DNA from: Sulfurimonadaceae bacterium
GTDB lineage: Bacteria; Campylobacterota; Campylobacteria; Campylobacterales; Sulfurimonadaceae
NCBI GenBank assembly: GCA_041571435.1
Contig: JBFFUI010000001.1
Coordinates: forward strand, 1 to 64,000
Direction: 5' to 3'
DNA length: 64,000 nucleotides
A program made the translations under genes and the position numbers. Every line of letters begins with the position of its first letter. The first letter of the stretch is position 1. Under the pieces are notes generated by a model that did not search any database, was not told where the DNA came from, and saw only the letters and a program-made list of their open reading frames with translations. Of the stretch, positions 10,638-44,802 are shown one piece after another.

Positions 10638-11102
10638 ATGAAAAAGACATTGGTTCTTTTATCGCTTGCCTGTGCTGCTTTATCGGCAGCACCCATCGGT
10701 GCTGAAATCTTCAAACAGTGTGCCATCTGTCACGGAGATCAAGCCCAGAAGCATTCACTCGACGTCAGTGCTATCATCGCAGGCATGGATGCCAAAAAGA
10801 TCGTGGAAACGCTAAAAGGCTATCAGTCAGGCAAGCTTGATCAATACGGTTTCGGAAACATGATGCAGGGACAGGCAACAAAACTCTCAGAAGAGCAGAT
10901 GCATGCAGTCGCAACGTATGTCTCATCTTTGCCCCCTGTAAAAGAGGACGATGCCAAGAAAGCGGCCCCGCCAGAACCCACGATCACCAAAGAAGAGGTG
11001 AACTACAACAGCTTCATGAAAGCGTATTTCAAAGCAAACCCCAAAGCGACCTTCAAAGAGGCCAAACAGAAGTGGGACGACTCTCAGAAACAGGCAATAT
11101 AG
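10638..11102 (+). CDS. Monoheme cytochrome c553-like with C-terminal extension
   Basis: Signal peptide, CAICH, distal Met in GNMMQGQA. Confidence 0.9.
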   Translation: MKKTLVLLSLACAALSAAPIGAEIFKQCAICHGDQAQKHSLDVSAIIAGMDAKKIVETLKGYQSGKLDQYGFGNMMQGQATKLSEEQMHAVATYVSSLPPVKEDDAKKAAPPEPTITKEEVNYNSFMKAYFKANPKATFKEAKQKWDDSQKQAI

Positions 11103-12252: not shown

Positions 12253-13035
12253 ATGATAAAAAAGATAAACCTCTTGGCTGTCCTGCTTTTGGCATGCTCG
12301 CCATTAGTATATGGAGACATTACAGGCAGTCCGCATGACTTATCAGGGAAAACAACTGGTGCTGTAGGTTCTGATGACAATGGCGAACTGTGTGTCTATT
12401 GTCATACGCCTCACGCCGCAAATACCGCTTTTGACGGTGCACCGCTTTGGAACAAGACCGCAACAGCTGGACTTGATTATATGATGTATGGAGCTACGGC
12501 TGTTAACACGGCCGGTGCAACGATCGCCAACACCGCAACAGCAACGACACCGGCAAGCCCTTCACTGGCATGTCTGAGCTGTCATGACGGTATCAGCGCC
12601 ATCGATTCGATCGTCAATGCACCTGGCTCTGGAATGGGTGCTTTGGCAGCAGGTACGGCTGGACAGAATATCGTCGATGCACTCACAACTGCATACGGTG
12701 GTAATATCGGTGGGACTCCGGGTACTGCAACTGCCGGTACGACCGTTGACCTTTCAAACGACCACCCGGTCTCCATCCCTTATATGGGAACCGGTGCTAC
12801 AGACAGTCCAGCCAGCCTCAGAGCGACAACTTTTGATCTCACTACATACGGAGACGGTGTTGCATGGGTAGGCGCAACAACGATTGCCGATCTTCTTCGC
12901 AACGGCAACGTGGAGTGCGGCAGCTGTCACGATCCACACAATGGTGGTAAGGTACAGGGAACAGATACGGAAGTCAACTTCTTGCGACACTCCAATACAA
13001 ACAGTAACCTCTGTATTGGATGTCACGCGAAGTAG
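12253..13035 (+). CDS. Secreted tetraheme cytochrome c, OmcE-like
   Basis: ATG 12253 after GAAGGAG; signal peptide; HDLS, CVYCHTPH, PLWN, SLACLSCHDG, DLSNDHPV, ECGSCHDPH, FLR, LCIGCHAK-stop. Confidence 0.85.
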   Translation: MIKKINLLAVLLLACSPLVYGDITGSPHDLSGKTTGAVGSDDNGELCVYCHTPHAANTAFDGAPLWNKTATAGLDYMMYGATAVNTAGATIANTATATTPASPSLACLSCHDGISAIDSIVNAPGSGMGALAAGTAGQNIVDALTTAYGGNIGGTPGTATAGTTVDLSNDHPVSIPYMGTGATDSPASLRATTFDLTTYGDGVAWVGATTIADLLRNGNVECGSCHDPHNGGKVQGTDTEVNFLRHSNTNSNLCIGCHAK

Positions 13036-13079
13036 TCTTTATTTGGGTAAAAACCAGACACTTTACTTTCACTGCAAAC

Positions 13080-13102
13080 GGCAGGCGGGGCATGCCCCTG
13101 CC
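13080..13102 (+). terminator. GC-rich stem-loop downstream of the OmcE-like gene
   Basis: GGCAGGCGGGGCATGCCCCTGCC; core GGGGCATGCCCC palindrome; no strong U-tract. Confidence 0.45.
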
Positions 13103-13215
13103 TCTGCCTCTGCCTTCAATAAAGTTTTATTGATTATAATTAAAGTATTACCTTTGAACTGTTTTGTACAGTCTTAAGTTAATATTTAAAAAATGAAAAA
13201 TTTTAAAAGGGGTGT

Positions 13216-14307
13216 TTGGTGAGAACCGTTTTTCTTTTTACAGTAATGCTTTCCGTCTTTCTTTTTCAGGGATGTGCGACAAAACCTGAGGCTGTGCAAC
13301 AGCCCAAGATCGTCTTTCCATCTTATCCGGATGAACCGAAGATAGCGTATGTCGACACCTACCGGGGTGAGTCACAGAGTGAGAACGACGCCAGTGCCTT
13401 AGATCTCTTTCTGGGAGAAGACAAGGGTAGAAAGACAATCTCACCAGTCATCGTAAAACCCTACGGCGTCGGCCTGCAAGATGGCAAACTCTATGTCGCC
13501 GACACAGGTACCGACACGGTCTTCATTATCGATGAAAAGAGCAAAGAGGTCTCCTACATCGGCAACAATCCAGTCGGCAGGCTTGTCGCTCCCGTGGCCA
13601 TTGCTTTTGACAGTAACGGAACGGTCTATGTCAGCGATGCACGTCAGAAAAGGGTACAAGGCTACAACAAAGTAGATGGCAAGTTGAAGTTTGTGCTAGG
13701 AAGTCGGCTGGATTTTGTCCATCCCACCGGCATCGCGATCGATAAAAACTTAAACCGGCTCTATGTCGTCGACACCAAGGGGCACTGCTTTAAAGCATTT
13801 GACATTGCGACGAAAAAACTTCTTTTCACCATCGGCGAGCGGGGGAGAGGTGACGCACAGTTCAACTTCCCGACCAATGTCGCCGTCGACCAACGCAACG
13901 GTAATATCGTCATTGTCGATACACAGAACTTCCGTGTTCAGATCTTTGACAAGGAGGGCAAGTTTATACGCCGTTTTGGAAAGATCGGCGATAGACCCGG
14001 AATGTTCGCACGCCCCAAAGGTGTCGGCATCGATACGGAGGGACATATCTACGTCAGTGATGCCGCCTTTAACAATGTCCAGGTCTTTAATGAGACGGGA
14101 GAGCTGCTGCTCTACTTCGGCGCCGCCGGCTACACACCAGCGACGTTTCGTCTTATCGCAGGAATCTTTATCGATGAGACCGACAAGATAGCGATTGCTG
14201 ACGGCTTCAGCGGACGGGTACAGACCTTTCAGTACCTGAGCAAAAAGTGGAAAGCAGCGCACCCCGATGAATATAACGAGCTCAAAGAGTTCAAACCAGA
14301 AATTTGA
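13216..14307 (+). CDS. NHL-repeat six-bladed beta-propeller lipoprotein
   Basis: Lipobox FQGC; repeats PxGIAxD...YVxD...RVQxF. Confidence 0.9.
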   Translation: MVRTVFLFTVMLSVFLFQGCATKPEAVQQPKIVFPSYPDEPKIAYVDTYRGESQSENDASALDLFLGEDKGRKTISPVIVKPYGVGLQDGKLYVADTGTDTVFIIDEKSKEVSYIGNNPVGRLVAPVAIAFDSNGTVYVSDARQKRVQGYNKVDGKLKFVLGSRLDFVHPTGIAIDKNLNRLYVVDTKGHCFKAFDIATKKLLFTIGERGRGDAQFNFPTNVAVDQRNGNIVIVDTQNFRVQIFDKEGKFIRRFGKIGDRPGMFARPKGVGIDTEGHIYVSDAAFNNVQVFNETGELLLYFGAAGYTPATFRLIAGIFIDETDKIAIADGFSGRVQTFQYLSKKWKAAHPDEYNELKEFKPEI

Positions 14308-14321
14308 GATGAAGGAATAAT

Positions 14322-15254
14322 GTGAAAATACTCTTTTTCATGCTCTTGCTAAACTGTTTTGTTGCAGCTGGAGAAGTCCTGCTGCCCGAAGCAACCGTTG
14401 CCGTCGTTAACGGCATCGCCATCTCAGAAGATGAGCGGGACAAAGAGGTCGGTAAACTGATGCCCAAGGCCTATTTTCATTCTACGTTGAATGACGAAAA
14501 GCTTAAAGTCCTGCAAGAGAAGGCAACTGCATCCCTTATAGAGAAAACACTTTTGTATCACTATGCGCTCTCCCAGGATCTGCGTGTCACTGATACTGAG
14601 ATCGCAAAGGTAATTGCGAGACTGCAAGCGGCATATGGCTCCAAAGTGGAACTGGATCGGGCCATACAACGTCTGGGGTTTACACCCGAAGCGTTCAAGA
14701 CCGCAATCAAGAAAGACGAGGTCCTTAAGAAGCTGTACAAAAAAGAGATCGAAGCAAGCTATAGTGATGAAGAGCTCAAAACGTATTACGAGAAGAACCG
14801 GTACAAATTCAAAGAGCCCGAGAAGATCAGGGTGCGTCTTATCTATGTCAGAAACGACCCTAAAGATCCTGACGGAAAACAAAAAGCAAAGCTTAAGATC
14901 GAAGAGGCCTACAAGAAGCTGCAAGAGGGTGCCCTCTTCGCCGACGTTGCTGCAGCCCATTCCAATGCGATGAGTCGTATCAATGGTGGGGACATGGGTT
15001 ATCTTCACAAGGGACGGCTTGATGAAGCGGTCGAGGAGATAGCATTTGCCATGAAGGCGGGCGAGATGAGCAAGGTAATCGAAAAAGATGTCGGGTATTA
15101 TATCGTCAAGGTCGAAGATAAAAAAGTGTCAAATCAGTTGTCCTTCGACATCGTCAAAGAAAGCCTCAGAAAAGAGTTGAAACAGCGAACAGAAGACGAA
15201 CGAAAAAGTACGCTGCTTGCCAAATTAAAAGCAACCGCCGTGATCATAAAGTAG
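14322..15254 (+). CDS. PpiC/SurA-type peptidyl-prolyl isomerase chaperone
   Basis: VAVVNG..I, FADVAAAHS...GGDMGY...AFAMKAGEMS...GYYIVKV. Confidence 0.9.
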   Translation: MKILFFMLLLNCFVAAGEVLLPEATVAVVNGIAISEDERDKEVGKLMPKAYFHSTLNDEKLKVLQEKATASLIEKTLLYHYALSQDLRVTDTEIAKVIARLQAAYGSKVELDRAIQRLGFTPEAFKTAIKKDEVLKKLYKKEIEASYSDEELKTYYEKNRYKFKEPEKIRVRLIYVRNDPKDPDGKQKAKLKIEEAYKKLQEGALFADVAAAHSNAMSRINGGDMGYLHKGRLDEAVEEIAFAMKAGEMSKVIEKDVGYYIVKVEDKKVSNQLSFDIVKESLRKELKQRTEDERKSTLLAKLKATAVIIK

Positions 15255-15263
15255 TAAAAAACG

Positions 15264-17051
15264 ATGAAACATACGCTTCTTGTCCTTTTGTCGCTCTGGT
15301 ATGCAGGCTCTTACTTGCTGCATGCCGCCGACTATCCGGACAGAGGCTTCTATGGCAGCTTGAATTTTTACTATATCGATGACAAATACGAAACAGGGCA
15401 ATTCTATAACGCACAGCAGGACTTTGTACAGGAATATAAGCTCGGTTACATCGGTAACATCTACAGTCCCCGTCTGCTCGACTACACCCTAGAGGGGCTT
15501 TTTCGAATCGAAGACATCAAAACGCAGAACACGGGCAGCGAAGGCAAGACAAATATCAAGAGCCAAGACTACAAGATCAACATGAACTTCATCAAAGAGA
15601 CCAACTACCCTTTTACTGTCTACGCACAAAAGACCGACCGACCGGTCTCTACCATCTACAGCACATCAAGCACACGATATGAGCAGGAGCTAGAGCGCTA
15701 CGGTCTTCAAGGGGCATTGAAGTTCGATCTCTTTACCGTTGCGTACGGGGCCACCAGACAAAAGAGTCTCTATGACCGTCTCTTTACCTACCAGGAGATA
15801 GAGAGCGACCTCTACAAGGCATCCATACGTCGCAGCAAACAAGCCTACAGTTACCAGTTGGGCTACAGCCACCTAGAGCGCAATGTCAACACCACGACAC
15901 TTACAGACAGCAACATCTCGACCAACGAAGTCGATGATACCGTGGACTTCACCTATCGATGGAAGATCTCGGATACACTGACCTTCAACTCTGATGCCCG
16001 CTATACCGACAGCGAATACTACAAATACAAGACGACGATAGCCAACCTTTACCTGCGATGGCGGCCCAAGAAACAGTACAACGGTAGCATTGCCGTAAGC
16101 GGCAGCCATACCGACCACTTTAGCGATACGAATGACACCAGGATCTATTCTGAGACCGTCGACACCTTGGATGTCTCTCAGATGTTCAGCTACATGCCGA
16201 CATCAGACCTGACCTTCACCGAGAACATCGGCTTCCATACCTATAAGACAAGCGTTGTCGAAGGCGACAATGCCAATCTTAGGCTTGGTGCCCACTACAA
16301 CAAGCAGCTCACCCAAGACACCAGAGTGCGCATGTCGGGAAGCTTTGATACGCTTACAAACGAGACCCGTAGGAAGCCGACGCTTACCAATGATCTCAAT
16401 GGGACGACGAGACGAAATAGCTATACCCTCGATGCCCGTGCCACAGTGACCGAAAAGTTGCCTTCACTAAGGTCAACACTGGATGTCGGCGGGAACTACT
16501 ACATGGTGCGGACCTCACTGGATGAGAAGCGCGACCGCTACAGCGCCAACCTCGCGTTTGCCTCGCAACTGACAAGCGGATTGCGCAACAGGTTTGATGC
16601 AAGCTATCTCAATGAACAGGGGCGCGCTATCTTTCTGCGAAACAATGTTGATGAGTTTGTCTACCGCTCTGTCATCCGGACCGACATCAGCGAATACCTT
16701 GACTATACGACCCGTCTTGGCGTTAAAGGACGGGTAACAGGAAAACTGGGACTGCGCTATTCGGATATTGAGAACGATGGGCTTCACATAGAACGGATCG
16801 TACCACGGGCGGACCTGACCGTAAACTACCGCTTTTTTCAGCGGCTGATCGTTGCAGCCGGTGCCCATGCTGACAGGGATTTGAGCTATAATTATATGAA
16901 TTACTCCGGCAATGCAAGCATCAACTACAGTATACGTAAAACCACGTTTAGGATGGGCTATCAGTATTATAAAACAGAAAGAACTGATGACCTGTTCTTC
17001 CCCGATTATGAACGCACGCGGTTTGAGATAAAATTAACACGGACATTTTAA
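15264..17051 (+). CDS. Outer-membrane beta-barrel protein
   Basis: Signal peptide; Tyr/Thr/Ser-rich alternating strands; C-terminal beta-signal RFEIKLTRTF. Confidence 0.75.
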   Translation: MKHTLLVLLSLWYAGSYLLHAADYPDRGFYGSLNFYYIDDKYETGQFYNAQQDFVQEYKLGYIGNIYSPRLLDYTLEGLFRIEDIKTQNTGSEGKTNIKSQDYKINMNFIKETNYPFTVYAQKTDRPVSTIYSTSSTRYEQELERYGLQGALKFDLFTVAYGATRQKSLYDRLFTYQEIESDLYKASIRRSKQAYSYQLGYSHLERNVNTTTLTDSNISTNEVDDTVDFTYRWKISDTLTFNSDARYTDSEYYKYKTTIANLYLRWRPKKQYNGSIAVSGSHTDHFSDTNDTRIYSETVDTLDVSQMFSYMPTSDLTFTENIGFHTYKTSVVEGDNANLRLGAHYNKQLTQDTRVRMSGSFDTLTNETRRKPTLTNDLNGTTRRNSYTLDARATVTEKLPSLRSTLDVGGNYYMVRTSLDEKRDRYSANLAFASQLTSGLRNRFDASYLNEQGRAIFLRNNVDEFVYRSVIRTDISEYLDYTTRLGVKGRVTGKLGLRYSDIENDGLHIERIVPRADLTVNYRFFQRLIVAAGAHADRDLSYNYMNYSGNASINYSIRKTTFRMGYQYYKTERTDDLFFPDYERTRFEIKLTRTF

Positions 17052-17056
17052 GGAAT

Positions 17057-18067
17057 ATGATGAAGATTTTTTTGTGGATAGGCCTCGTTCTGATGACAAC
17101 AGAAAGTCTGCAGGCTAAAGCAGCCGAAAGACTAGTCTGGCCTGCGGCACCGGACCCGGCCAGGATCGAATATCTCTCAGCCGTGACAACGGCCAAAGAC
17201 ATAGGGATAAAAAAAGGTTTTTTTTCGAAGATCAGCGATTTTCTTTTTGGGGATGAAGAGAAGGGACTGAACGCACCCTTTGGAATCCACGCCGATGCAC
17301 AAAAGGTCTATGTCACCGATATCGGCGCCAAGACAGTGACGGTTTTTGACAAAAAAGAGGAGGAAGTCATCACAATAGAAGGGCCGAAGGAGAAGCGCTT
17401 TCTCTACCCTGTCGATGTTGTTTCGGACAGCAAAGGCAATATCTATGTTTCCGATTCGGTGCTGGCTAAAGTCTATGTCTTTGACAGTGACGGGGACTTC
17501 ATTCGCACTATCGCACCCAAAATGCTGCAAAGACCCGTCGGTATCGCTATCAGTGCGGATGGCAAACGGCTTTACATAGTCGATGCACTCGCCAGTCAGA
17601 TCCATATGACGACATTAGAGGGCAAATATGTCCGTTCCATCGGGCGTAAAGGCAGTGGTCAAGGGGAGTTTAACCGGCCGACCTATATCGATGTCGGCAT
17701 CGATGGCAAGATCTATCTCTCCGACTCGATGAACCACTGTATTCAAGTACTCGACAGTGAAGGCAACTTTATCCGTACCTTCGGCCATCTGAGCAAGAAC
17801 ATCGGTGGCTTTGGAAGTCCGCGCGGTATTGCCATCGACAGCGACGGCAATATCTATGTCAGCGACACGCTTTTCAACGTGATCCAGATCTTCAACCCTG
17901 ATGGGCAGCTGCTGATGCTCTTTGGGCAGTACGGCAGTGAACGCGGTGCCTTTGCACTTCCTGTCGATATCTCGATTTTGCCGGATAACACCATCTTTGT
18001 CAGTGACACCAACAACCGACGTTTTCAGCTCTTTAAGCGGCTGGATCCACCAAAAGCGAGGAGATAG
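17057..18067 (+). CDS. NHL-repeat beta-propeller protein (second paralog)
   Basis: VWPAAPDPARIEY N-terminus parallels VFPSYPDEPKIAY of 13216; NHL repeats. Confidence 0.9.
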   Translation: MMKIFLWIGLVLMTTESLQAKAAERLVWPAAPDPARIEYLSAVTTAKDIGIKKGFFSKISDFLFGDEEKGLNAPFGIHADAQKVYVTDIGAKTVTVFDKKEEEVITIEGPKEKRFLYPVDVVSDSKGNIYVSDSVLAKVYVFDSDGDFIRTIAPKMLQRPVGIAISADGKRLYIVDALASQIHMTTLEGKYVRSIGRKGSGQGEFNRPTYIDVGIDGKIYLSDSMNHCIQVLDSEGNFIRTFGHLSKNIGGFGSPRGIAIDSDGNIYVSDTLFNVIQIFNPDGQLLMLFGQYGSERGAFALPVDISILPDNTIFVSDTNNRRFQLFKRLDPPKARR

Positions 18068-18069
18068 CA

Positions 18070-20142
18070 ATGCGATTTATAATTTTGTGCGTGTTTGGTA
18101 TGCTGATGTTCAGCAGCGGCGAGCTTTCAGCTTCCATCGTGAACACAAAGCACAACCTCTCCGTCACCAATACGGCAGGGACTATCAAGGCACAGACGGA
18201 GACAGAACTCTGTGTATTCTGCCATATCCCGCACCAGGGAAGGCCCGATGGTAAACCACTGTGGAACAGGAGTATGCCGGCATCGGCTTATACGATGTAT
18301 GACAGTGACTATCTGCGACGCATGGGCTATGCCCCTGTAGAACCCGATCTCGGCATACTGAATGATACCCCGGGTGCCTTGTCACGCCAGTGTCTCAGTT
18401 GTCATGACGGCACCGTCGCTGTTGGCGCCATCTACAAGCTTCGAAGGGATTTTCTGGGTGCCGGTATCGTTCCTATGGACGGGGTCGAGACAGACGGCAC
18501 CATCCCTGCGACCTCGGCAGCATTTCTCGGAACAGACTTGACGATGCACCACCCCGTCGGCATAAAGTACGATCCGACCGTGACGAAAAGCTTTGACATC
18601 GGTGAACGGACGATGGAGCTTCTGACCCTGCCGACTGCGCCGCTCAAACTTTTCCAGTATAACGGTGAAAACTATGTCGAGTGCTCCTCCTGCCATGACC
18701 CCCACAAAGACAACACAATGTTTTTGCGGGTCGATACCGGTGCCAACCATGCACAGAACATCGTCACGACCTGTACCTCCTGCCATGACAAGGACGGTTG
18801 GACGGGAAGTGTCCACCAGACAGCGACCAACACCTATACAGACCCTGCCGTCCTCGCCGACTACGGAACCAACAAAGTCGCAGACCTGGGCTGTGCCAAC
18901 TGCCACACGCCGCACAATGCAGAGGGGGTTCCTTATCTCAACAGAAAGGTACAGGGCAACACCTGTTTTCAGGGGGCTGCTTCTGACATAGCCGGTGCGG
19001 CTTGCCACGGCGTAGGCGGTGCGAAAGATATCGAGACGATCCTCAACCGCGCCTACACCCATCCGGTAATCGCAAGCAGTGACCCCGCGGATCCGAAACA
19101 TACTAACCTGGATGTACTTTATGGTACTGGTATTGTCGATCCTAATGGCGGTGCCGGCATCGACTGGGCGACCAACAAACATGCGGTCTGTATGGACTGT
19201 CATAATCAGCATCAGGCACAGCCCGGTACCCATGCTCCGGACGGACAGTGGTATCCTAACCCCGGAACATCGACAAATACCGTTTCCAATGTACTGAAGG
19301 GAGTTCCCGGCGTCGAGCCGACATGGCCGACAGAGTGGACACAGCCAATGACATTTACAACCCTTGCCTCGGCGGAAAAAGAGTACCAGATCTGCTTTAA
19401 ATGCCACTCCTACTGGGGAATCGGAAGTGCGACCGGCGGTGTGAACGACGGCGGGCATGTCTCCCCGAGTGATAATGTAACGCCGATGACCGATGTGGCA
19501 TGGGAGCTGAATATCAACAATAAATCGGGTCACCCTGTTGTTGTCAGTTTGTTAAATCGTGTAGGCTCATACGCGCCCAAAGAATTGGATGCCATACAGC
19601 TTCTTTCACCATGGACGGAAAACCCTGGCGCCAACCAGATGTACTGTTCGGACTGTCACGGTGCGGATAATGAACTGGGCGGTGACCCGAAAGGGCCGCA
19701 CGGCTCCGACCTGAAGTATATCCTCAAAGGGACCAATCAGTTCTGGCCAGCCAATGCCAACGGCAATCTCTACACGATGGACGACATCAATGTTGCGGGG
19801 ATCGACCCGGGCGATGACGGACTTTTCTGTAAAAACTGTCACGACATCGCTCGTCCGCACACAGACTGGTCAACACAAATGTCTGGAAAAGGCTTTCAGT
19901 GTGTCGAGTGTCATGTAACGGTACCCCACGGTTCACCGGTATCCAGGCTTCTGGGATATGCAAATTTCCCGTCACCGTACAACTACAACGGCAACAGTTT
20001 GAAGATGGACGGCTATCGTAAAAGTATCTATACCGACCTGAACAACAAAGATGTATATTCACCGAATTGTGGCGGTGGAAACGGCTGCCACAATAACGAT
20101 GACAGTGCCAACGGTGCCTATGATGCCAACCCATTCCCGTAA
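18070..20142 (+). CDS. Multiheme cytochrome c: N-terminal OmcE-like domain plus C-terminal multiheme region
   Basis: Mature N-terminus SIVNTKHNLS; 10 CxxCH plus CX12CH (CFQGAASDIAGAACH) and CX5CH (CGGGNGCH). Confidence 0.85.
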   Translation: MRFIILCVFGMLMFSSGELSASIVNTKHNLSVTNTAGTIKAQTETELCVFCHIPHQGRPDGKPLWNRSMPASAYTMYDSDYLRRMGYAPVEPDLGILNDTPGALSRQCLSCHDGTVAVGAIYKLRRDFLGAGIVPMDGVETDGTIPATSAAFLGTDLTMHHPVGIKYDPTVTKSFDIGERTMELLTLPTAPLKLFQYNGENYVECSSCHDPHKDNTMFLRVDTGANHAQNIVTTCTSCHDKDGWTGSVHQTATNTYTDPAVLADYGTNKVADLGCANCHTPHNAEGVPYLNRKVQGNTCFQGAASDIAGAACHGVGGAKDIETILNRAYTHPVIASSDPADPKHTNLDVLYGTGIVDPNGGAGIDWATNKHAVCMDCHNQHQAQPGTHAPDGQWYPNPGTSTNTVSNVLKGVPGVEPTWPTEWTQPMTFTTLASAEKEYQICFKCHSYWGIGSATGGVNDGGHVSPSDNVTPMTDVAWELNINNKSGHPVVVSLLNRVGSYAPKELDAIQLLSPWTENPGANQMYCSDCHGADNELGGDPKGPHGSDLKYILKGTNQFWPANANGNLYTMDDINVAGIDPGDDGLFCKNCHDIARPHTDWSTQMSGKGFQCVECHVTVPHGSPVSRLLGYANFPSPYNYNGNSLKMDGYRKSIYTDLNNKDVYSPNCGGGNGCHNNDDSANGAYDANPFP

Positions 20143-20151
20143 GATCCGGTC

Positions 20152-20673
20152 ATGAAATCATTTGTCCTGGGGATCTCTGCTTTACTTATCTTTGCAGCAA
20201 CGCTGCATGCCAACGAGGACAAAGCCGTCAAGCACGCCCTGCTCAAATACAACTACGGCATCATCAAGATGGCTAAAAGCGGCGAGACCGAATTTTTTAA
20301 AAGTTTTGTCAACAAGGAGATCGTGACCAAGCTGATGCTTTGGGTCAAGGCCTGGCAGGATAACAACCTTGTCATGCTTGCCGAGATCAAAGACTTCCGG
20401 TTCGGCCCTATCAACTACAGCGGAGACCGTGCTACGATAACGACGATGGAGAACTGGAACTTCACCTATGTCGACATCGCAACGCGAAAAGTGGCAGCAG
20501 AGAAGGTCACCATGTTATATAAGATGCGCTACACGCTTCAGCAACAAAAAAACGGCTGGATGATCGTCGACATCCAGCATCTCGATGAGAAGCAGGTCAA
20601 TGTACCGGAGGACCATCCCGCGACAGGAAAAGGTGTCTCTGCCTATCCGCAAAGCGACATTGCGACACACTGA
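20152..20673 (+). CDS. Secreted hypothetical protein, possible NTF2-like fold
   Basis: Signal peptide; ATITTMENWNFTY...MRYTLQQQKNGWMIVDI pattern. Confidence 0.6.
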   Translation: MKSFVLGISALLIFAATLHANEDKAVKHALLKYNYGIIKMAKSGETEFFKSFVNKEIVTKLMLWVKAWQDNNLVMLAEIKDFRFGPINYSGDRATITTMENWNFTYVDIATRKVAAEKVTMLYKMRYTLQQQKNGWMIVDIQHLDEKQVNVPEDHPATGKGVSAYPQSDIATH

Positions 20674-20719: not shown

Positions 20720-23700
20720 ATGATTATTAAAAAGGTCTGGTCACTGCTGATCTCAATGAAGCTGATGCTGCTTCTGTTACTGCTCTTTGCCATCGCGAGC
20801 GGCGTAGCAACGTTCATAGAAAATGATTACGGCGTCAACACGTCATGGGCGCTTGTCTACAGCACACGGTGGTTCGAGGCCATCCAACTGCTTCTCGGTA
20901 TCAGCATCATCGGCAATATTTACCGATACAAAATGTACAAAAAGAAAAAATGGCCCGCCTTTATCTTTCATCTCGGGTTCCTGGTCATTCTGGTGGGTTC
21001 GGGTATCACCCGCTATTACGGTTATGAAGGCGTTATGCACATCCGTGAAGGCAACAGTGAACACCGCATCCTCTCATCCGATGCCTTTTTGCAGATTACT
21101 GCAAAGAAAAACGACAACACCTATTATGCAGAAGATATCGTCTACATATCAGAACTCGGCGGCAGAAAATTTCAAAACAGCCTGAAGGTAGACGGAAAAG
21201 AGGTTGTCGTTACATATAAAGACTTTATCGACAAGGCCGTAAAGACCGCCGTCGAAGATCCGGCCGGAACACCGATCGTCGTGTTCGTGATCCCGACACC
21301 GCAAGGACCCGAAAAGTATTTCTTGCGCAGCGGGGAGTCGGTTGACGTCGGACCATTGGCCGTCTATTTCGACAAGGCCCCGACTACCGACAAACCGTTT
21401 ATACGCTTTTTCAGCGACAACGGGGAGATCCGTTTCGTCTCCAATGTACCAATCCCCTGGATGAAGATGATCAACCGTTCGCAAGGTGTCTATAGTGCGA
21501 ATACCGATTATGAACTCGATGCGCGGCGCATGTACACCATCAACGGCGTGCAGCTCGTTACCAAATCAGTCCTCAACAAAGGATCTGTCAAAGTCGTAAG
21601 CGAAGCGAAATACAAAGAGTCCATGAAGATGCAGATGAAGATAGATTCTCTCTCTGCACTGGTCGTGGATGTGGCCTATGACGGCAAACATAAAGAAGTG
21701 ACACTTCTGGGCAAAGGCAAACGGTACAAAGGCTTTACCGAAAACCTGACTATCGGCGACGTTACCCTCTCTCTTGAATGGGGTTCCAAGACCATAAGGC
21801 TACCTTTCTCACTCTACCTTCGTGACTTTATCCTGGTAAAATATCCCGGCTCGATGAGCCCGTCGTCGTATGAGAGTCATGTGACTTTAGTTGATGAAGC
21901 AAACGGTATCCAGGAGGGGCACAGGATCTACATGAACCACACGCTTGACTACGGCGGTTTTCTCTTTTTCCAATCCTCTTACGACAAGGATGAGCAGGGA
22001 ACGATCCTCTCGGTCAACCATGACCCGGGCAAGTGGCCGACCTATGTCGGCTATATCCTTCTTGCCATCGGTATGTTTTTCAACCTGCTGAATCCTAACA
22101 GCCGTTTCGGAAAACTGGCACGTACCAAGTACGAATACCGCGCCAATGCGCTGCTGCTTGCGGTACTTCTTGCAGCGCTGTTCTATACGGAACCTCTCTC
22201 GGCATCTTCGAGTCAGCAAGCGGCACCGGTCGATATGGAAGCGCTTCTTGATGATGTCAAAAAAATCGACCGCGGGCATGCCGACCACTTTGCGACAATG
22301 CTGGTGCAAGGACGTGACGGACGAATCAAGCCGCTCGACACACTTGCCATAGACCTGCTCAACAAGATATCAGGCAAAAACAGTCTGCATGGTATGAATC
22401 ATAACCAGGTTATCTTGGGAATGGCCACCAAACCCGATGCATGGAAACAGATCGAGATGATCAAGGTATCGCATCCGAAAGTCAAAGAGATACTCGGGAT
22501 AAAAGCGTCACAGAAGCGTTTTGCCTATGCTGTAGCTTTTGACAAATTCGGGCAGTACAAGCTTGGTGATATAGCCGAAGAAGCGCTTCGAAAGCGTGCG
22601 GCGGAAAGAGACAAATACGATAAGGATCTGATCAAAGTGGATGAGCGGGTCAATATCGCCTACATGATCTATTCCGGCCGTTTTATGACCGTGTTCCCGA
22701 TGGAAGGCGATCTTGACAACAAATGGTACTACCCGGACCATGCGATGAAGAACTTCCCGCCAAAGTATCGCAATGAAGTGTATGAACTGCTCAAGAACAA
22801 CAGTGCAGGGTTCTCAAAAGGGCTCAATGACGGTGACTGGAAAATGGCTGACAGTGCGATAGATGCCATCAAGGCATACCAGTACAAGTATGGTTCGTCG
22901 ATCATCCCGGAGGCAACACTGATCAAAGCAGAGCTTCTCTACAATAAGCTGGATATCTTTGAACGCCTTTTCCCGATCTATCTGATAGCCGGATTTGTTT
23001 TGCTGGTGCTGATCTTTGCCCGTCTCGTCAAGCCGGCGCTTAATTTGAAGATAGCCATGCGTATTGTTCTGACTATCTTCGTGGCCGGTTTTGTAGCACA
23101 TACACTTAGCCTTGGCCTGCGATGGTACATTGCCGGACATGCCCCATGGAGCAACGGATATGAGGCGATGCTCTATATCTCCTGGACGATCATCCTCGCT
23201 GGTATCCTTTTTGCGCGAAGTTCCGAACTGGCATTGGCGACGACAGGTATCTTTTCGGGGATTGCCCTCTTTGTCGCACACCTGAGCTGGCTTGACCCGC
23301 AGATCACCACGATGGTCCCGGTACTCAAGTCCTACTGGCTGACTATCCATGTCTCCATCATTACCGCAAGTTACGGTTTTCTTGGCCTAAGCACACTCCT
23401 CGGATTTGTCTCGTTGATCTTCTATATGATGCTCAACAATGAAGCAAAGCGCGAACGTATCAGTGTGAATATCCTCGAATCGACCCGTATCAGCGAGATG
23501 TCGATGATCGTCGGCCTCTCACTGCTCACGGTAGGTAACTTCCTGGGCGGCGTCTGGGCAAACGAATCATGGGGACGCTACTGGGGCTGGGATCCAAAAG
23601 AGACCTGGGCACTGGTGACCATTCTGGTCTATGCCTTTGTCATCCACATGCGTTTTATACCGATGCTGCGTTCCAACTTTGTCTTCAATGCCATTTCGGT

Positions 23701-23893
23701 TGTTGCCTACAGTTCTGTTATAATGACCTATTTTGGTGTCAACTACTATCTCTCCGGTCTGCACTCCTATGCCGCCGGTGATCCTGTACCCGTTCCGGTG
23801 TGGGTCTACTATGCAGTGACCGTAGTTGCCGCCGTTATTATTGTTGCATCGTTTAACCGTAACAAATTGATGCAGATAAAACCCGTAAATTGA
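20720..23893 (+). CDS. ccsA: Fused system II cytochrome c synthase (CcsBA/NrfI type)
   Basis: ResB-like N-terminal half (IFHLGF, IYMNHTLDYGG..FFQSSYD); WWD motif WANESWGRYWGWDPKETW; GLHSYA. Confidence 0.92.
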   Translation: MIIKKVWSLLISMKLMLLLLLLFAIASGVATFIENDYGVNTSWALVYSTRWFEAIQLLLGISIIGNIYRYKMYKKKKWPAFIFHLGFLVILVGSGITRYYGYEGVMHIREGNSEHRILSSDAFLQITAKKNDNTYYAEDIVYISELGGRKFQNSLKVDGKEVVVTYKDFIDKAVKTAVEDPAGTPIVVFVIPTPQGPEKYFLRSGESVDVGPLAVYFDKAPTTDKPFIRFFSDNGEIRFVSNVPIPWMKMINRSQGVYSANTDYELDARRMYTINGVQLVTKSVLNKGSVKVVSEAKYKESMKMQMKIDSLSALVVDVAYDGKHKEVTLLGKGKRYKGFTENLTIGDVTLSLEWGSKTIRLPFSLYLRDFILVKYPGSMSPSSYESHVTLVDEANGIQEGHRIYMNHTLDYGGFLFFQSSYDKDEQGTILSVNHDPGKWPTYVGYILLAIGMFFNLLNPNSRFGKLARTKYEYRANALLLAVLLAALFYTEPLSASSSQQAAPVDMEALLDDVKKIDRGHADHFATMLVQGRDGRIKPLDTLAIDLLNKISGKNSLHGMNHNQVILGMATKPDAWKQIEMIKVSHPKVKEILGIKASQKRFAYAVAFDKFGQYKLGDIAEEALRKRAAERDKYDKDLIKVDERVNIAYMIYSGRFMTVFPMEGDLDNKWYYPDHAMKNFPPKYRNEVYELLKNNSAGFSKGLNDGDWKMADSAIDAIKAYQYKYGSSIIPEATLIKAELLYNKLDIFERLFPIYLIAGFVLLVLIFARLVKPALNLKIAMRIVLTIFVAGFVAHTLSLGLRWYIAGHAPWSNGYEAMLYISWTIILAGILFARSSELALATTGIFSGIALFVAHLSWLDPQITTMVPVLKSYWLTIHVSIITASYGFLGLSTLLGFVSLIFYMMLNNEAKRERISVNILESTRISEMSMIVGLSLLTVGNFLGGVWANESWGRYWGWDPKETWALVTILVYAFVIHMRFIPMLRSNFVFNAISVVAYSSVIMTYFGVNYYLSGLHSYAAGDPVPVPVWVYYAVTVVAAVIIVASFNRNKLMQIKPVN

Positions 23894-24697: not shown

Positions 24698-25303
24698 GTG
24701 GGTAAAAAACGAAGCATTGTCATAACTTTTTCAACTCTTTTTGTACTGATGAGCAGTCAGATATTGACAGCACCGCTGGCTGCAGAGGAATCGCGGATTC
24801 AACAGGAGATGGCATCGCCGATGCCTGAAATCCCGTTACAAAGAGCTATGGGTAAAGAAGCTTATGACAAAGCAATGGCCTCCGGGCAGTACCGCTATCT
24901 TGACAACTCGAAATGCCGCCTCTGCCACCGCGAGTTTTTTATCGGTCGTAAAAACGATGCACATGACCATGCCATGGAAAATCTTGTCAAAAGTGGTCAT
25001 GACAAGAACCCTCGCTGCCTGACCTGCCATACGACCGGGTACGGCGTTGAGACCGGATTTGTCAATATGAAAAACACGCCTCGCCTCGCCAACGTCCAGT
25101 GCGAAGGATGCCACGGCCCCGGCAATGTTCATGTCGCCCAAGTAAAAGGCAAACAGGGATTTAAAGGTTTTCTTGCCGGACTGGACCATCCGGAGCGCCT
25201 GAAGAAGATGTGCACAAGTTGCCATACAAAACGCTGGAACCGTTCCTACCATGACCTGCAAAAAACGTATAAAAAATACGGTAAAGCGAATCCGAATGAT
25301 TAA
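24698..25303 (+). CDS. Tetraheme cytochrome c (c554-like domain)
   Basis: CRLCH, CLTCHTTGYG, NVQCEGCHGPG, CTSCH. Confidence 0.85.
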   Translation: MGKKRSIVITFSTLFVLMSSQILTAPLAAEESRIQQEMASPMPEIPLQRAMGKEAYDKAMASGQYRYLDNSKCRLCHREFFIGRKNDAHDHAMENLVKSGHDKNPRCLTCHTTGYGVETGFVNMKNTPRLANVQCEGCHGPGNVHVAQVKGKQGFKGFLAGLDHPERLKKMCTSCHTKRWNRSYHDLQKTYKKYGKANPND

Positions 25304-25312
25304 GGGTTCAAA

Positions 25313-26851
25313 ATGATAACAGCGATCTTCGGTTACCTTAAAAAGTACAATGTCGCTGCCCTGTTACTTACGCTCGTATTGAGTATCTCCTACCTCGCTT
25401 TTTACAACTACGACAAACAAAAAGATCTCCTACTCACTCAGATGAAAAGTGACACCGAGCATATCGTAAGCTCGATCTCATCAGCGATGCAGCGTTTTCA
25501 CGACATCAAGTCGACGATGAACCTTCAAAAACTGGTCAATGATGTCTCGTTCGGCCTTGAGATCTTCGAATTTCGCTATATGGAACCCAACGGTATTATC
25601 AAGAACTCTATGTTCAGCGAAGAGATCGGCAAGCAACACAGCGCCGAAAGTTTCAAGGAGGTCCTCCAGCGAAAACGAAAGTTGAAAACTTTCTTTTTCG
25701 AGGTACGTGATTATGTAAAGGTCATGGCCATCTATTATCCGATCTATCGCAACAAAAGGCTGATCGGCATCATCGATCTGGCCGTCGATGTCTCTGAATA
25801 TGCAGTGATCACCGGCCTTGATACCGATTTCGCACTGACACGCCGAAAAGTCGACATTTTAAACCTTCTTAAATCGATCGAAGGTTCCATAGAAAACAGC
25901 CTTGCTGTTTTTGAAGAGACCGATATGCACAACTTTTTGCGTGCTTATGTACAGTCTGCAACCAATATACTGGAAGTGTCACAGATCGATTCCGACAAAA
26001 AGGTCCTGATCAGTAGCAATAACAAAATAATCGGGAAGACCTTGAAGGCCGACAAACTGCTCCCTCTCGAACTCATCGAGCACGAAGGACACCAAGCCTA
26101 CAGAACAGTAACTGATATTGGCCAACTTAATGGGGATGAGAACAGCAAATTGATCATATTGATCGATGCCGCTCCCTATGAAGCCAACAGACGTCAGCTC
26201 TTGCAGACAGCCCTGATCACCTGTGTCATCGCGCTTATTATAGCCCTCTTTATTGCCAGATCGATCTACTACTTTGCACTGGAACGCTCACGCAGCGAGA
26301 AAGAGCGCCTGGAACGTCTGGTCAAAGAGCGTACGCATGAGATAGAGTTGTTAAGCAAGACCGATGGCCTCACTGGTCTGTGGAACCGCGGCTACCTCGA
26401 AGAGATGCTCGAGATGGAGTATAAGCGCGCGCGACGCTACATGCATGATGTTTCGATAATGCTCATCGACCTTGATCACTTTAAGCGTATCAACGACACC
26501 TATGGGCATATGGCCGGTGACGAAGTACTACGTCAGGTCAGCCAGCGTATCCGATGCTGTGTGCGCGAAACGGACTTTGTCGGACGTTACGGCGGTGAGG
26601 AACTGGTCATCATCCTGCCTGAGACGACAATTGTAGCAGCCCAGACAATTGCCGGCAACATTCTTAAGCGCATTGCGGAAGAGCCTGTCGTATTTGAATC
26701 GCATATCATTGATGTCACGACAAGTATTGGTCTGAACAACTTGCGTCTCACCCATAACAATTACCAGGCAGTCTTTGCTGAAACCGACGAAGCACTGTAT
26801 CGTGCAAAAGAAGAGGGACGCAACAGGGCCGTAGTCTTTAAGGCCGATTGA
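25313..26851 (+). CDS. Sensor diguanylate cyclase with periplasmic domain
   Basis: Two TM helices around a ~260-aa periplasmic region; DGLTGLWNR, RETD I-site, GGEEL. Confidence 0.9.
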   Translation: MITAIFGYLKKYNVAALLLTLVLSISYLAFYNYDKQKDLLLTQMKSDTEHIVSSISSAMQRFHDIKSTMNLQKLVNDVSFGLEIFEFRYMEPNGIIKNSMFSEEIGKQHSAESFKEVLQRKRKLKTFFFEVRDYVKVMAIYYPIYRNKRLIGIIDLAVDVSEYAVITGLDTDFALTRRKVDILNLLKSIEGSIENSLAVFEETDMHNFLRAYVQSATNILEVSQIDSDKKVLISSNNKIIGKTLKADKLLPLELIEHEGHQAYRTVTDIGQLNGDENSKLIILIDAAPYEANRRQLLQTALITCVIALIIALFIARSIYYFALERSRSEKERLERLVKERTHEIELLSKTDGLTGLWNRGYLEEMLEMEYKRARRYMHDVSIMLIDLDHFKRINDTYGHMAGDEVLRQVSQRIRCCVRETDFVGRYGGEELVIILPETTIVAAQTIAGNILKRIAEEPVVFESHIIDVTTSIGLNNLRLTHNNYQAVFAETDEALYRAKEEGRNRAVVFKAD

Positions 26852-26915: not shown

Positions 26916-27944
26916 CTACTTCTGATGACAGCGTTGGCACACGTTAAACGGCATTGAGCCCTTCATTCTCAGAAGACTGATCCCGCTTGAACCATGGGGA
27001 TTGTGGCAGCTGCTGCAATAAAACTTTCTATGCGGTCGTGCCGGGTCCTTGTCGCCTTTAGTCGGATGGGCACCCGCGTTTCGTCCAAAGACAAAACTGG
27101 AAACAACATGCTTCCCGCTGGCTTTTTCCGCATGACAGGTCGTGCAGAGCTCCCATACCGGCTTACGCAGGAAAAACTCGTTGTCTGAACCATGCGGGTT
27201 ATGACAACGCTCACACCGTCCATCATTGACGGGTCCATGGACATAACGGTTATTATCCCACTTTTTGACTTTGTCATGGCACTTTTCACACACCTTGTTT
27301 ACGGGGTCGCGCACCAAATATTTTGATATGTCATCAGACGGCGTATCATAGGCGCCGAGTTTGCCGTCATGACAATCTGTACAGCGCCAGTTTATGGTCG
27401 GCGCATGGCTGTTGCGCTTTGACACCAAGCTTTTGTGGCACGTGTAGCATGTCGTCTGTGACACATCGTCAAAGACCTTGTCTCCGGTGGGAATGTTGGA
27501 TTTCATATTATGGCATGAAGCACAGACTTTCTCCTTTTCGTCGACATGGAAAAAGCCTTCTTCGTAGGCATCAGGATCGTCATCAAACCCTTCATAAAGT
27601 TCAGGCAGGAAGAAGATATGGCGTTGGGACTGCTGTACCTTGAGACCCTTAAGATAGTTCGTCACCGTAATGATGTTTTCACCCTTGTCAATCTTTATGG
27701 TCTTACAGTAGGTCTCTTTTTTCGGATCGGCTTTCAATTCGTAAGAACTGTTGTTGTCCACTTCAATCAGCACAGTATCTATATCATCAGCAGATGCTTT
27801 TACAACAATAGTGACAAGCTCCCCGTCATAACGAAGGTAGTCAGCAGGTGCCAATAGATCTACCGGCGCCAAAGGCTCTGCCGCCTTAGTGATTGCCATA
27901 GCAAGGCAGAAGAGGAAAACGAGTCTAAGAAGTGTCATATGCAC
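26916..27944 (-). CDS. Octaheme cytochrome c (doubled-CxxCH type)
   Basis: 8 CxxCH; HGPV...CERCHNPHGS pattern; N-terminal non-heme beta-rich domain. Confidence 0.88.
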   Translation of the reverse strand: MHMTLLRLVFLFCLAMAITKAAEPLAPVDLLAPADYLRYDGELVTIVVKASADDIDTVLIEVDNNSSYELKADPKKETYCKTIKIDKGENIITVTNYLKGLKVQQSQRHIFFLPELYEGFDDDPDAYEEGFFHVDEKEKVCASCHNMKSNIPTGDKVFDDVSQTTCYTCHKSLVSKRNSHAPTINWRCTDCHDGKLGAYDTPSDDISKYLVRDPVNKVCEKCHDKVKKWDNNRYVHGPVNDGRCERCHNPHGSDNEFFLRKPVWELCTTCHAEKASGKHVVSSFVFGRNAGAHPTKGDKDPARPHRKFYCSSCHNPHGSSGISLLRMKGSMPFNVCQRCHQK

Positions 27945-27945
27945 A

Positions 27946-29169
27946 TTACTTAAGGTTTACTTTCGGCGTCTCACGATCGTAATGACGTCGGGCATGACAC
28001 GCCGGTGCACACGAACCGCCTGTCGGTGTCTCGATATAACGGATCGGAAAGTCGATCTTGCCAAAGTGTGTCTTTTTGCGAAGGTGGTGCGGGTACTCTT
28101 TTGTACCATGGAAATCGTGACAGGCACGACATGTACGTCCTTTCTCTCTATCAACATGGACAAAGTGCATGTTTTTGTCGCCATTTCTAAAGTTGGTTGC
28201 AGTAAGCGTCTTTTCATCCTTGATCTTTTCGGGTTCATGACACTCGAAACAGATATAGTTCTTTTCATCGAATTTCTGATAGAAACTTCTCGGGAACGGT
28301 TTTTTAAGCATCCTCAGGTTGTTCGACCCGTGAGGATTGTGACAGGCGGCACAGTCACCCCAGAGAATCGGACCGTGCCAATCCGGGTTTTGCTCCAGAT
28401 GCTTCGCCATATTGGCCAGTTTATGCCCCTCTTCGTCTGTTGTCAGACTTTGATTGTGACAGCTTAGACAAAGATCTTTGGCCGTGTCTTTGACCAGGAA
28501 CTTTGGATTTTCGGAACCGTGGGGGTCATGGCACTCAAGACATTTACGCGGACGATTCAGTGCCCCATGTTTTGCCGTGACCGTATTGATCCATACCTCT
28601 TTGTCCGTATGACACATGACACAGAGGTCTTTCTTGCCGTCAGCCTTAAGCTGGTACTGGTGGTCCTCTGTATGCGGATCATGGCAGTTCGTACATTGGT
28701 CTTTAACCGGCGGGTGGATGTTGCTCGTCTTTTTCAGGAACTCGCCTTTTGCCTGGTGGCACGAGGTACAAAGCTCGTTGATACTTGATGCGACCAGCAG
28801 TTTAGCATTGTCCGATTCATGCGGATTATGACACGCCGTACACGCACCTGCTGCTACCGGCCCGTGAACGAACTTTTTGTCCCCCTTTTCTCCATGACAC
28901 ATGACACAAAGTTCAGGTGGTTCCATGACCAGTTCTACACCGCCTTTTGGATCCGTATGACAAACGGTACAGTCACCCCATTCGTATGGAGGGTGCACCA
29001 CTTTTTTCGGTGCACGCAACGCTGTCCCGAAAAACTTTTCATCCTCGGTCAGTACGACCTCTTTTGCTGCAGATGCATTTGTCTCAACCGATGCTGCTGC
29101 AAAAAGGTTTGAAGACAACAGCAGTAACCCCGCCCATTTTCCGATAGCACACATATATCTGTTTTTCAA
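27946..29169 (-). CDS. ~12-heme periplasmic cytochrome c (doubled-CxxCH type)
   Basis: 11 CxxCH plus terminal CX3CH (CAPACH); repeated HGP...CxxCHxPH-S units. Confidence 0.88.
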   Translation of the reverse strand: MKNRYMCAIGKWAGLLLLSSNLFAAASVETNASAAKEVVLTEDEKFFGTALRAPKKVVHPPYEWGDCTVCHTDPKGGVELVMEPPELCVMCHGEKGDKKFVHGPVAAGACTACHNPHESDNAKLLVASSINELCTSCHQAKGEFLKKTSNIHPPVKDQCTNCHDPHTEDHQYQLKADGKKDLCVMCHTDKEVWINTVTAKHGALNRPRKCLECHDPHGSENPKFLVKDTAKDLCLSCHNQSLTTDEEGHKLANMAKHLEQNPDWHGPILWGDCAACHNPHGSNNLRMLKKPFPRSFYQKFDEKNYICFECHEPEKIKDEKTLTATNFRNGDKNMHFVHVDREKGRTCRACHDFHGTKEYPHHLRKKTHFGKIDFPIRYIETPTGGSCAPACHARRHYDRETPKVNLK

Positions 29170-44052: not shown

Positions 44053-44097
44053 AATGCAGCAAAAGCCTGACAGCAATCTAAGAGGAACAGATATAGC

Positions 44098-44802
44098 ATG
44101 ATATCCGTCTGCATCGCGACCTATAACGGTGAACAGTACATCAAAGCCCAGCTTGACTCGATTTTATGCCAACTTTCAGATGGTGATGAGATCATCATCT
44201 CGGATGACAGTTCCAGCGACCGGACAGTCGAAATAATCAAGAGTTTTGATTCCGACATCATTGTTCTGTTGGAGAACCAAACATTCAGAAGTCCGGTTTT
44301 CAATTTTGAAAACACCCTGAACCATGCAAAAAACGACTTCATTTTTCTTTCGGATCAGGACGATATATGGGAAGAGAACAAAGTCAGCACTATCATGCAA
44401 CATTTGCAGCACAATGATCTCGTCTTGAGTGACGCTTCACTTATCGATGCCGAAGGAAAAGAGATCAATGCCTCTTTTTTTGCGCTTAACGGATCCGCTC
44501 CCGGACTGTTCAAAAATCTGGTGAAAAACTCCTATATCGGCTGCACGATGGCCTTTAACCGAAAGATCCTTGAGCAGGCACTCCCTTTTCCGGAGAACAC
44601 ACCTATGCACGACTGGTGGATAGGGCTGATCGCTGAGATGTTCGGAAAAGTCTATTTTTGTAAAGAGCCGCTTGTCCACTACCGCAGGCATGATGCCAAT
44701 GCATCCGCGAGTGCCGAAAAAAGTCCTTATGGTTTCGGAGAAAAAATATCGATGCGCCTTATTCTTCTCGTCAACTTGGCAAAAAGGTGGTTCAGAAAAT
44801 GA
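44098..44802 (+). CDS. Glycosyltransferase family 2 (rhamnosyltransferase-like)
   Basis: SVCIATYNGE, LSDQDDIW, HDWW. Confidence 0.9.
   Translation: MISVCIATYNGEQYIKAQLDSILCQLSDGDEIIISDDSSSDRTVEIIKSFDSDIIVLLENQTFRSPVFNFENTLNHAKNDFIFLSDQDDIWEENKVSTIMQHLQHNDLVLSDASLIDAEGKEINASFFALNGSAPGLFKNLVKNSYIGCTMAFNRKILEQALPFPENTPMHDWWIGLIAEMFGKVYFCKEPLVHYRRHDANASASAEKSPYGFGEKISMRLILLVNLAKRWFRK

Follow-up and report, generated by a model that had tools for sequence, protein, structure and literature searches.

An OmcE/Uet-type tetrahaem cytochrome and its gene cluster in a Sulfurimonadaceae genome: a probable subunit of an extracellular electron-transfer system

We analysed a stretch of 64,000 nucleotides (nt), here called the window, comprising positions 1 to 64,000 of contig JBFFUI010000001.1 of a Sulfurimonadaceae bacterium (assembly GCA_041571435.1). 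The gene at 12253..13035 on the forward (+) strand encodes a tetrahaem cytochrome of 260 amino acids (aa) that is homologous over its full length to OmcE, the filament cytochrome of Geobacter sulfurreducens (GSU0618; PDB entry 7TFS). It is accompanied by genes for an outer-membrane barrel, propellers, and further multihaem cytochromes, much as in the omcE clusters and in the uet cluster of Ca. Tenderia electrophaga. The product of the gene is probably a small, abundant subunit that works outside the cell as part of an OmcE/Uet-type electron-transfer system of a Sulfurimonas-like sulfur oxidiser, and it is likely to polymerise as OmcE does.

The + strand open reading frame (ORF) ending at 13035 has two possible starts, an ATG at 12160, giving an ORF of 291 aa, and 12253. 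The latter is favoured because an AAGGAG box lies 8 nt 5' of it and because it is the start position in 41 aligned homologs. A Sec signal peptide, read by eye, is predicted at about residues 1 to 21 and is followed by the mature chain. A preliminary description of this gene had listed a series of motifs in a set order, and the translation of 12253-13032 contains all of them in that order, namely, HDLS (H28), CVYCHTPH (C47 to H54), PLWN, SLACLSCHDG (C107 to H111), DLSNDHPV (H171), ECGSCHDPH (C222 to H229), FLR, and LCIGCHAK followed by the stop (C254 to K260). The four haem motifs it claimed are the four CXXCH of the translation, and the last haem does sit at the extreme C terminus, with the chain stopping two residues past the haem-4 His. 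The positional conservation of four distal His residues was likewise borne out, as H28, H54, H171, and H229 were invariant in an alignment of 42 sequences. Also invariant in 42/42 were the 8 Cys and 4 proximal His that complete the 16 haem-ligating residues, and the CH-x-K chain end with its terminal K260. These aligned, invariant His residues are those expected for bis-His ligation of all four haems. Searches of Pfam and NCBIfam with the subunit returned a generic "doubled CXXCH" domain at the C terminus and nothing more specific. Anchoring of the subunit as a lipoprotein was ruled out, since the Cys at residue 15 is not conserved.

The resemblance to OmcE pointed out in the preliminary description reflects real homology. 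Among all PDB chains, phmmer gave a single significant match to the subunit, chain A of the OmcE filament (7tfs_A), with an expectation (E) value of 2.9e-20 and with query residues 8-260 aligned to chain residues 11-232. In the pairwise alignment HDLS, the four CXXCH, the two CXXCHxxH extensions, the His of DHPV, and FLR were all aligned. A profile built from 42 homologs matched 7tfs_A over its full length (E value, 1.2e-35), and it also picked up another chain of solved structure, 9yuq_N (218 aa, from an entry of 16 chains), over its full length (E value, 1.1e-29). Entry 9YUQ is probably the Desulfuromonas soudanensis OmcE bundle. With OmcS (6EF8) there was no significant similarity, the same profile reaching an E value of only 0.022 over 15 residues. 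One homolog, of 54% identity, is labelled Ca. Sulfurimonas baltica. On these alignments we regard the protein as a genuine member of the OmcE family.

The subunit gene and the features around it are as follows.

10638..11102, + strand: periplasmic monohaem class-I cytochrome c, 154 aa, loosely linked to the cluster (Pfam Cytochrom_C).
12253..13035, + strand: OmcE/UetA-type tetrahaem cytochrome, 260 aa, with 4 CXXCH, 4 invariant distal His, and a CH-A-K end.
13074..13113, + strand: stem-loop rich in G+C, within the 180 nt that separate the subunit gene from the next gene (125 nt folded; -30.2 kcal/mol; z, -1.94).
13216..14307, + strand: six-bladed NHL-repeat beta-propeller, 363 aa, with a lipobox (..LFQGC) (Pfam NHL, E value 6e-27; syntenic).
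14322..15254, + strand: SurA-like PpiC-type peptidyl-prolyl isomerase, 310 aa (Pfam Rotamase_3, 8e-20; SurA_N_3, 7e-13).
15264..17051, + strand: outer-membrane beta-barrel of 28 strands, 595 aa, with C-terminal ..R-T-F (AlphaFold2 model; predicted local distance difference test [pLDDT], 90.4).
17057..18067, + strand: second NHL-repeat beta-propeller, 336 aa, with a signal peptide and no lipobox Cys (Pfam NHL, 5.8e-24).
18070..20142, + strand: multihaem cytochrome, 690 aa, with an OmcE-like N-terminal module (7tfs_A, E value 2.8e-25).
20152..20673, + strand: conserved secreted protein, 173 aa, beside the undecahaem gene in 22/27 loci.
20720..23893, + strand: fused CcsBA (System II cytochrome c synthase), 1057 aa (Pfam ResB and Cytochrom_C_asm).
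24698..26851, + strand: c554-like tetrahaem cytochrome (201 aa) and Cache-GGDEF diguanylate cyclase (512 aa) (Pfam).
26916..27944, - strand: MtrA-like multihaem cytochrome, 342 aa, 8 CXXCH (6r2q_A, E value 1.2e-14; Paired_CXXCH_1, three matches).
27946..29169, - strand: MtrA-like multihaem cytochrome, 407 aa, 11 CXXCH (6r2q_A, E value 4.6e-14; Paired_CXXCH_1, five matches; synteny).

The genes from 13216 to 20673 are separated by gaps of only 2-14 nt, which suggests that they form an operon. The 595-aa barrel had no Pfam or NCBIfam match; its best Foldseek match was MtrB (6r2q_B; E value, 1.3e-11; template modelling [TM] score, 0.48), and its homologs end in R-x-F, a signature typical of outer-membrane proteins. 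Chain A of 6R2Q, matched by both cytochromes on the - strand, is presumably MtrA, although its PDB molecule label reads otherwise. The 173-aa secreted protein had no Pfam match, and an atlas search with it gave weak leads only. The c554-like cytochrome and its GGDEF neighbour, also found near omcE-like genes in two Sulfuricurvum-labelled loci (L037 and L059), are possibly a regulatory pair placing the cytochrome system under cyclic di-GMP control.

A hairpin-bearing gap 3' of the omcE-like gene is common, being present in 39 of 46 related loci with a median length of 159 nt and often with a T-run (counted with no shuffle control), whereas the genes that follow nearly abut one another. The stem-loop may act as a partial terminator or attenuator that sets a high ratio of subunit to machinery. 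A scan for consensus promoters and terminators around the subunit gene gave nothing useful, and a search of sequencing runs listed no RNA runs with the subunit, only four DNA runs from one marine-metagenome study, from which the present DNA may itself derive. G+C across the cluster is unremarkable, and recent transfer as judged from base composition was therefore rejected.

To place the locus among its relatives, one genome per species was scanned; 269 relatives were found, and 79 loci were kept. Downstream synteny was counted in the 42 loci with at least 7.5 kb of flank 3' of the omcE-like gene. The order NHL propeller, isomerase, barrel, NHL propeller, 690-aa cytochrome, all on the same strand, was found in 30 of the 42, was partial in 3, and was missing from 9. 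Of those nine, one (L074, Persephonella) carries these genes on the opposite strand; the others look like orphan paralogs. The 30 full loci were labelled Campylobacterota (Sulfurimonas, Sulfuricurvum, Hydrogenimonas, and others) and Nitrospirota, and the partial or inverted loci came from Nitrospinota, Aquificota, and a Syntrophus-labelled metagenome-assembled genome. Upstream, 27 of the 65 loci with enough flank have two MtrA-like genes directly before the subunit gene, and 5 of the 65 have there, as in this window, a gene for a 283-aa lipoprotein, beside which stands a monohaem cytochrome c of the 10638..11102 type. The window thus presents a local rearrangement of a common layout. Across the 30 full loci the median identity was 60% for the 690-aa cytochrome, 52% for the subunit, and 32% for the barrel, which evolves fastest; the 690-aa cytochrome was better conserved than the subunit in 25 of the 30.

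Within the Sulfurimonadaceae, an OmcE-type gene (E value of 1e-25 or better) was present in 33 of 224 genomes that are at least 90% complete, spread over 5 of 22 genera, and within the genus in 4 of 16 genomes, indicating that the cluster is an accessory trait. A second class of OmcE-like paralogs, at 36-48% identity, was also seen without the barrel and propeller cluster (L050, L056, L059, L061, L063, L064, L065, L069, and L081). These often share a genome with a full cluster, as in Sulfurimonas sp. CS5, which has one locus with it (L033) and one without (L064).

Besides the subunit, the only OmcE-like sequence in the genome is formed by residues 12-240 of the 690-aa cytochrome; the two are 33% identical over subunit residues 12-260. 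Residues ~9-240 of the larger protein form a complete OmcE-like four-haem module that retains the N-terminal His, the four haem motifs, and the three other distal His, and its residues 9-224 match 7tfs_A (E value, 2.8e-25) better than the subunit itself does. An extra invariant His, H249, lies ten residues past haem 4, bringing the module to at least nine conserved His. The chain then runs on past haem 4 into about seven more haems. Its haem sites comprise 10 CXXCH, an invariant CX12CH, and a variable C-terminal CXnCH, suggesting about eleven haems in all. C299 and C312-H313 of the unusual site are invariant, spaced as CX12CH in 30 of 32 homologs and as CX13CH in the other 2.

These features bear on how an OmcE filament begins and ends. 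Petersen et al. 2026 expected an OmcE "anchor" to be an OmcE-like protein with a ninth histidine and considered that the "tip" might be an OmcE-like protein with more exposed haems; according to these authors, omcE operons encode no such candidate (PMC13712944). The 690-aa cytochrome is, from its sequence, an in-operon candidate of this anchor/tip kind. It would fit one filament end only, because its chain continues where that of the subunit invariably stops. It may sit at the base, as a nucleator joining the filament to the MtrA/28-strand-barrel conduit, or at the tip, offering haems to minerals. Tentatively, then, it could be the missing end piece of OmcE-type wires. On this reading, to which we give less than even odds, the names "Uet" porin-cytochrome complex and "OmcE nanowire" would refer to a single machine.

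In 20 of 27 loci the CcsBA gene of the cluster lies no more than 2.5 kb past the 690-aa gene, and the genome encodes a second full-length fused CcsBA of 45% identity elsewhere (contig C9:15529-18639; L083). In Wolinella, dedicated System II lyases attach haem at CXXCK and CX15CH sites (PMC6976685). Wolinella CcsA1 and NrfI offer parallels for a dedicated lyase. By analogy, the cluster CcsBA may be dedicated to the CX12CH site of the 690-aa cytochrome, since it travels with a cytochrome bearing that invariant site.

The preliminary description had also pointed to two Ala/Thr/Gly-rich stretches in the subunit as possible surface loops or glycosylation sites. Both are present in the translation; they fall at gaps of 5 and 14+2 residues in the OmcE sequence of the pairwise alignment, and parts of them, e.g., Y-G-G-N-I-G, are conserved within the Campylobacterota clade. 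Because they are insertions relative to OmcE, they may reasonably be taken for surface loops. The idea of glycosylation found no support in its N-linked part, as the subunit contains zero D/E-X-N-X-S/T sequons and the +2 position of its single N-X-T varies among the homologs. A pgl-type N-glycosylation locus does lie in the window (43120-51374, + strand), with a PglB/STT3-type oligosaccharyltransferase at 45687-47777, three GT2 genes, one GT4 gene, an epimerase, and a PglF-like dehydratase. N-glycosylation of the subunit by this PglB was rejected for want of a sequon. Elsewhere in the cluster, bacterial sequons number three in the 28-strand barrel and one each in the first NHL propeller and the two MtrA-like cytochromes; the 690-aa cytochrome, like the subunit, has none.

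Taken together, the parts suggest the following route. After export by Sec, the subunit would receive its haems, four in number, from a CcsBA synthase in the periplasm. Its folding, and its passage or docking at the 28-strand barrel, would be aided by the SurA-like isomerase together with both NHL propellers. Outside the cell the subunits would stack head to tail like OmcE, with one His from each completing a haem of its neighbour to give a continuous bis-His chain. The two MtrA-like cytochromes would carry periplasmic electrons through or to the barrel, and the 690-aa cytochrome would probably form the junction or end piece between this conduit and the filament. Electrons from sulfur or hydrogen oxidation would then be discharged to Mn(IV)/Fe(III) oxides or partner cells.

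Haem chains conduct both ways and the direction of flow cannot be read from sequence, but we consider discharge somewhat more likely than uptake. Geobacter OmcE and OmcS, in which His ligation crosses between subunits, are tied to Fe(III)/Mn(IV) reduction (PMC9473688), a related cultured Sulfurimonas couples the oxidation of sulfide to solid Mn(IV) oxide (PMC9122950; PMC11748539), and the midpoint potential of the OmcE bundles from D. soudanensis is about -145 mV (PMC13712944). Such a low potential suits low-potential donors feeding higher-potential acceptors. Discharge is favoured because of these three points together with the homolog labelled Ca. S. baltica.

The opposite physiology, with the same parts, has been proposed for Uet in cathode-oxidising Tenderiales and iron-oxidising Gallionella. 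Here electrons from metal sulfides, Fe(0), cathodes, or partner cells would pass via periplasmic monohaem cytochromes to a terminal oxidase or nitrate reductase, and two monohaem class-I cytochromes do flank the cluster (Pfam). In gene content and order the cluster matches uet, including the barrel of 28 strands, the 11-haem cytochrome, and the Ccs gene beside it; uet occurs in aerobic lithoautotrophs, the lifestyle of Sulfurimonadaceae (bioRxiv 10.1101/2022.05.06.490989; PMC10734462). This likeness to the Tenderia cluster is, however, one of architecture and not of sequence alignment, and the triheme c7 proteins (UetD/E/G) and the cupredoxin (UetF) of uet were not found by Pfam scans between 9.8 and 29.6 kb of the window. 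From haem chemistry, moreover, a bis-His pattern conserved with low-potential OmcE would make uptake from moderate-potential donors uphill, and the solid Mn(IV) oxide used by cultured Sulfurimonas is an acceptor. An uptake system is a serious contender, with a chance somewhat short of even.

A further reading keeps the complex and dispenses with the wire. The tetrahaem protein would be a monomeric adaptor at the outer face, or a periplasmic shuttle, of a Uet/Mtr-like porin-cytochrome complex made up of the 28-strand barrel, the MtrA-like cytochromes, and the 690-aa cytochrome, with no long filament. With a barrel that resembles MtrB and two cytochromes that resemble MtrA, a closed complex of this kind would suffice to explain the gene set, and in the uet literature UetA is an extracellular tetrahaem that may simply interact with UetJ (bioRxiv 10.1101/2022.05.06.490989). 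OmcE-like tetrahaem genes are moreover widespread, and not all are expected to encode wires (PMC13712944); 9 of 42 loci, mostly of the orphan-paralog type, have no downstream cluster beside them on the same strand. Yet the features that make OmcE polymerise are invariant here, with the N-terminal His close to the start of the mature chain, the chain end after haem 4, and eight His for four haems, and both solved homologs are filaments (7TFS and 9YUQ; PMC13712944). The hairpin gap also sets the subunit gene apart as it would a highly expressed major-subunit gene. We hold a non-polymerising subunit to be unlikely, although it deserves to be kept in mind.

Several observations weigh against a polymerising subunit of a discharging system. 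Identity to OmcE is only ~29% (Foldseek alignment), and the two long inserts could alter subunit packing. The haem-free AlphaFold2 model of the subunit was poor (pLDDT, 56), and in the Foldseek comparison with OmcE proposed in the preliminary description 7TFS was the only match and a weak one (E value, 0.014; TM score, 0.25-0.30). OmcE was reported to be dispensable for Fe(III) oxide reduction and current production in Geobacter (PMC13194489), and uet, architecturally the closest named cluster, was proposed for uptake and not discharge. In this window the MtrA-like pair lies 14 kb from the subunit gene and on the opposite strand. Finally, neither for this protein nor for any homolog from Campylobacterota did the literature searched offer data on filaments, expression, or localisation. 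As for the models, the haem-free structure adds nothing beyond the sequence evidence, nor does it detract from it; prediction of a complex of two mature subunits with four haems returned a score of 0.17 (mark, 0.42), which bears on polymerisation in neither direction.

The cluster matters in the first place for its hosts. At redox boundaries in the sea and in groundwater, Sulfurimonadaceae belong to the main oxidisers of sulfide, and about 1 in 7 of their species genomes carries an OmcE-type gene. Earlier work left open how they contact electron partners, noting "incomplete" porin-cytochrome sets (PMC11748539); for some of them the cluster is a concrete molecular candidate for such contact, be the partner solid, such as Mn(IV) oxide, or cellular, such as cable bacteria. 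For the nanowire field it supplies an in-operon OmcE-like protein with extra haems, of the kind said to be missing from omcE operons (PMC13712944), and it ties together the separately named uet and omcE systems. The in-operon OmcE-module undecahaem cytochrome and its possible dedicated haem lyase have the highest value for follow-up.

Two ORFs outside the cluster were noted in passing, both read by eye. A 257-aa ORF at 179-952 (- strand), in a stretch of low G+C (38% versus ~48% in the rest of the window), has an N terminus like those of REP-associated/IS200-like Y1 transposases. A 1062-aa ORF at 6492-9680 (+ strand), directly 5' of a Sel1-repeat gene, resembles large NAD-specific glutamate dehydrogenases.

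Among known systems, the subunit itself is closest to Geobacter OmcE, with which it shares the aligned four CXXCH and four distal His and the end after haem 4, and from which it differs in the two Ala/Thr/Gly-rich insertions and in the modest identity given above. In its minimal form, in Desulfuromonadia, the omcE cluster comprises OmcE and a large barrel together with two multihaem cytochromes and two propeller lipoproteins; OmcE homologs accompanied by a porin and a propeller were reported from five phyla, with "some examples" in Campylobacterota (PMC13712944). Petersen et al. 2026 recognise the nanowire type by a large beta-barrel and a beta-propeller lipoprotein nearby; both are found here, as they are in 30 of the 42 loci. 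The present cluster likewise has a large outer-membrane barrel, propeller (lipo)proteins, and two further multihaem cytochromes nearby, and, as in the marine/minimal omcE type, neither Pfam scans nor the neighbourhood revealed a glycosyltransferase block adjoining it. It differs in including a SurA-like isomerase, an OmcE-module 11-haem cytochrome, and a CcsBA paralog, none of which Petersen et al. 2026 list for omcE operons (PMC13712944), and in its host, which belongs to a lineage of sulfur-oxidising lithoautotrophs, whereas the omcE hosts are metal reducers.

The OmcS system of Geobacter is more distant. In its osc operon a folding factor, OscH, and the secretion factors OscE/F/G accompany the filament subunit (PMC13194489). 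The likeness lies in a filament-type subunit paired with folding and secretion factors; OmcS differs in carrying six haems versus the four of the subunit here and shows no significant sequence similarity to it. OscH is a prolyl isomerase, and OscEFG include a porin and propellers.

With MtrCAB of Shewanella (6R2Q) the cluster shares a barrel whose nearest relative is MtrB, two cytochromes that match MtrA, and, in the proposed model, a haem chain threaded through the barrel. However, the barrel here has 28 strands versus 26 for MtrB (bioRxiv 10.1101/2022.05.06.490989), and the outer partner is OmcE-like. No MtrC-type decahaem scored above the Pfam cut-off between 9.8 and 29.6 kb, where Mtrc-MtrF matches were sub-threshold, and the full MtrCAB set is thus not present.

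The longest list of shared parts is with uet. In Ca. Tenderia electrophaga this cluster encodes a tetrahaem cytochrome (UetA), a peptidyl-prolyl isomerase (UetB), a barrel predicted to have 28 strands (UetC), NHL proteins (UetH/I), and an extracellular undecahaem cytochrome (UetJ), followed by ccsAB, and it was proposed to serve electron uptake (bioRxiv 10.1101/2022.05.06.490989); it also occurs in Gallionella (PMC10734462). Compared by architecture only, the tetrahaem, the isomerase, the 28-strand barrel, the two NHL proteins, the ~11-haem cytochrome, and the Ccs genes all have counterparts here. Besides the missing c7 proteins and cupredoxin, in place of which stand the MtrA-like 8- and 11-CXXCH cytochromes, the window differs in having one NHL gene between the tetrahaem and isomerase genes, in its fused CcsBA, and in one of the eleven haem sites being CX12CH, not CXXCH.

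No literature linking Sulfurimonas with OmcE was found, nor any linking UetA with OmcE; one review names both and does not connect them. Among the best 12 of 198 matches, none treated undecaheme/UetJ together with Sulfurimonas or Campylobacterota, which is not proof of absence. As far as we found, this is a lineage in which such clusters had been mentioned but not described in the literature searched, and Sulfurimonas sequences may already be among the homologs listed by Petersen et al. 2026. Because the cluster is of the known omcE/uet kind, we regard it as a new member of that kind and not as a new system.

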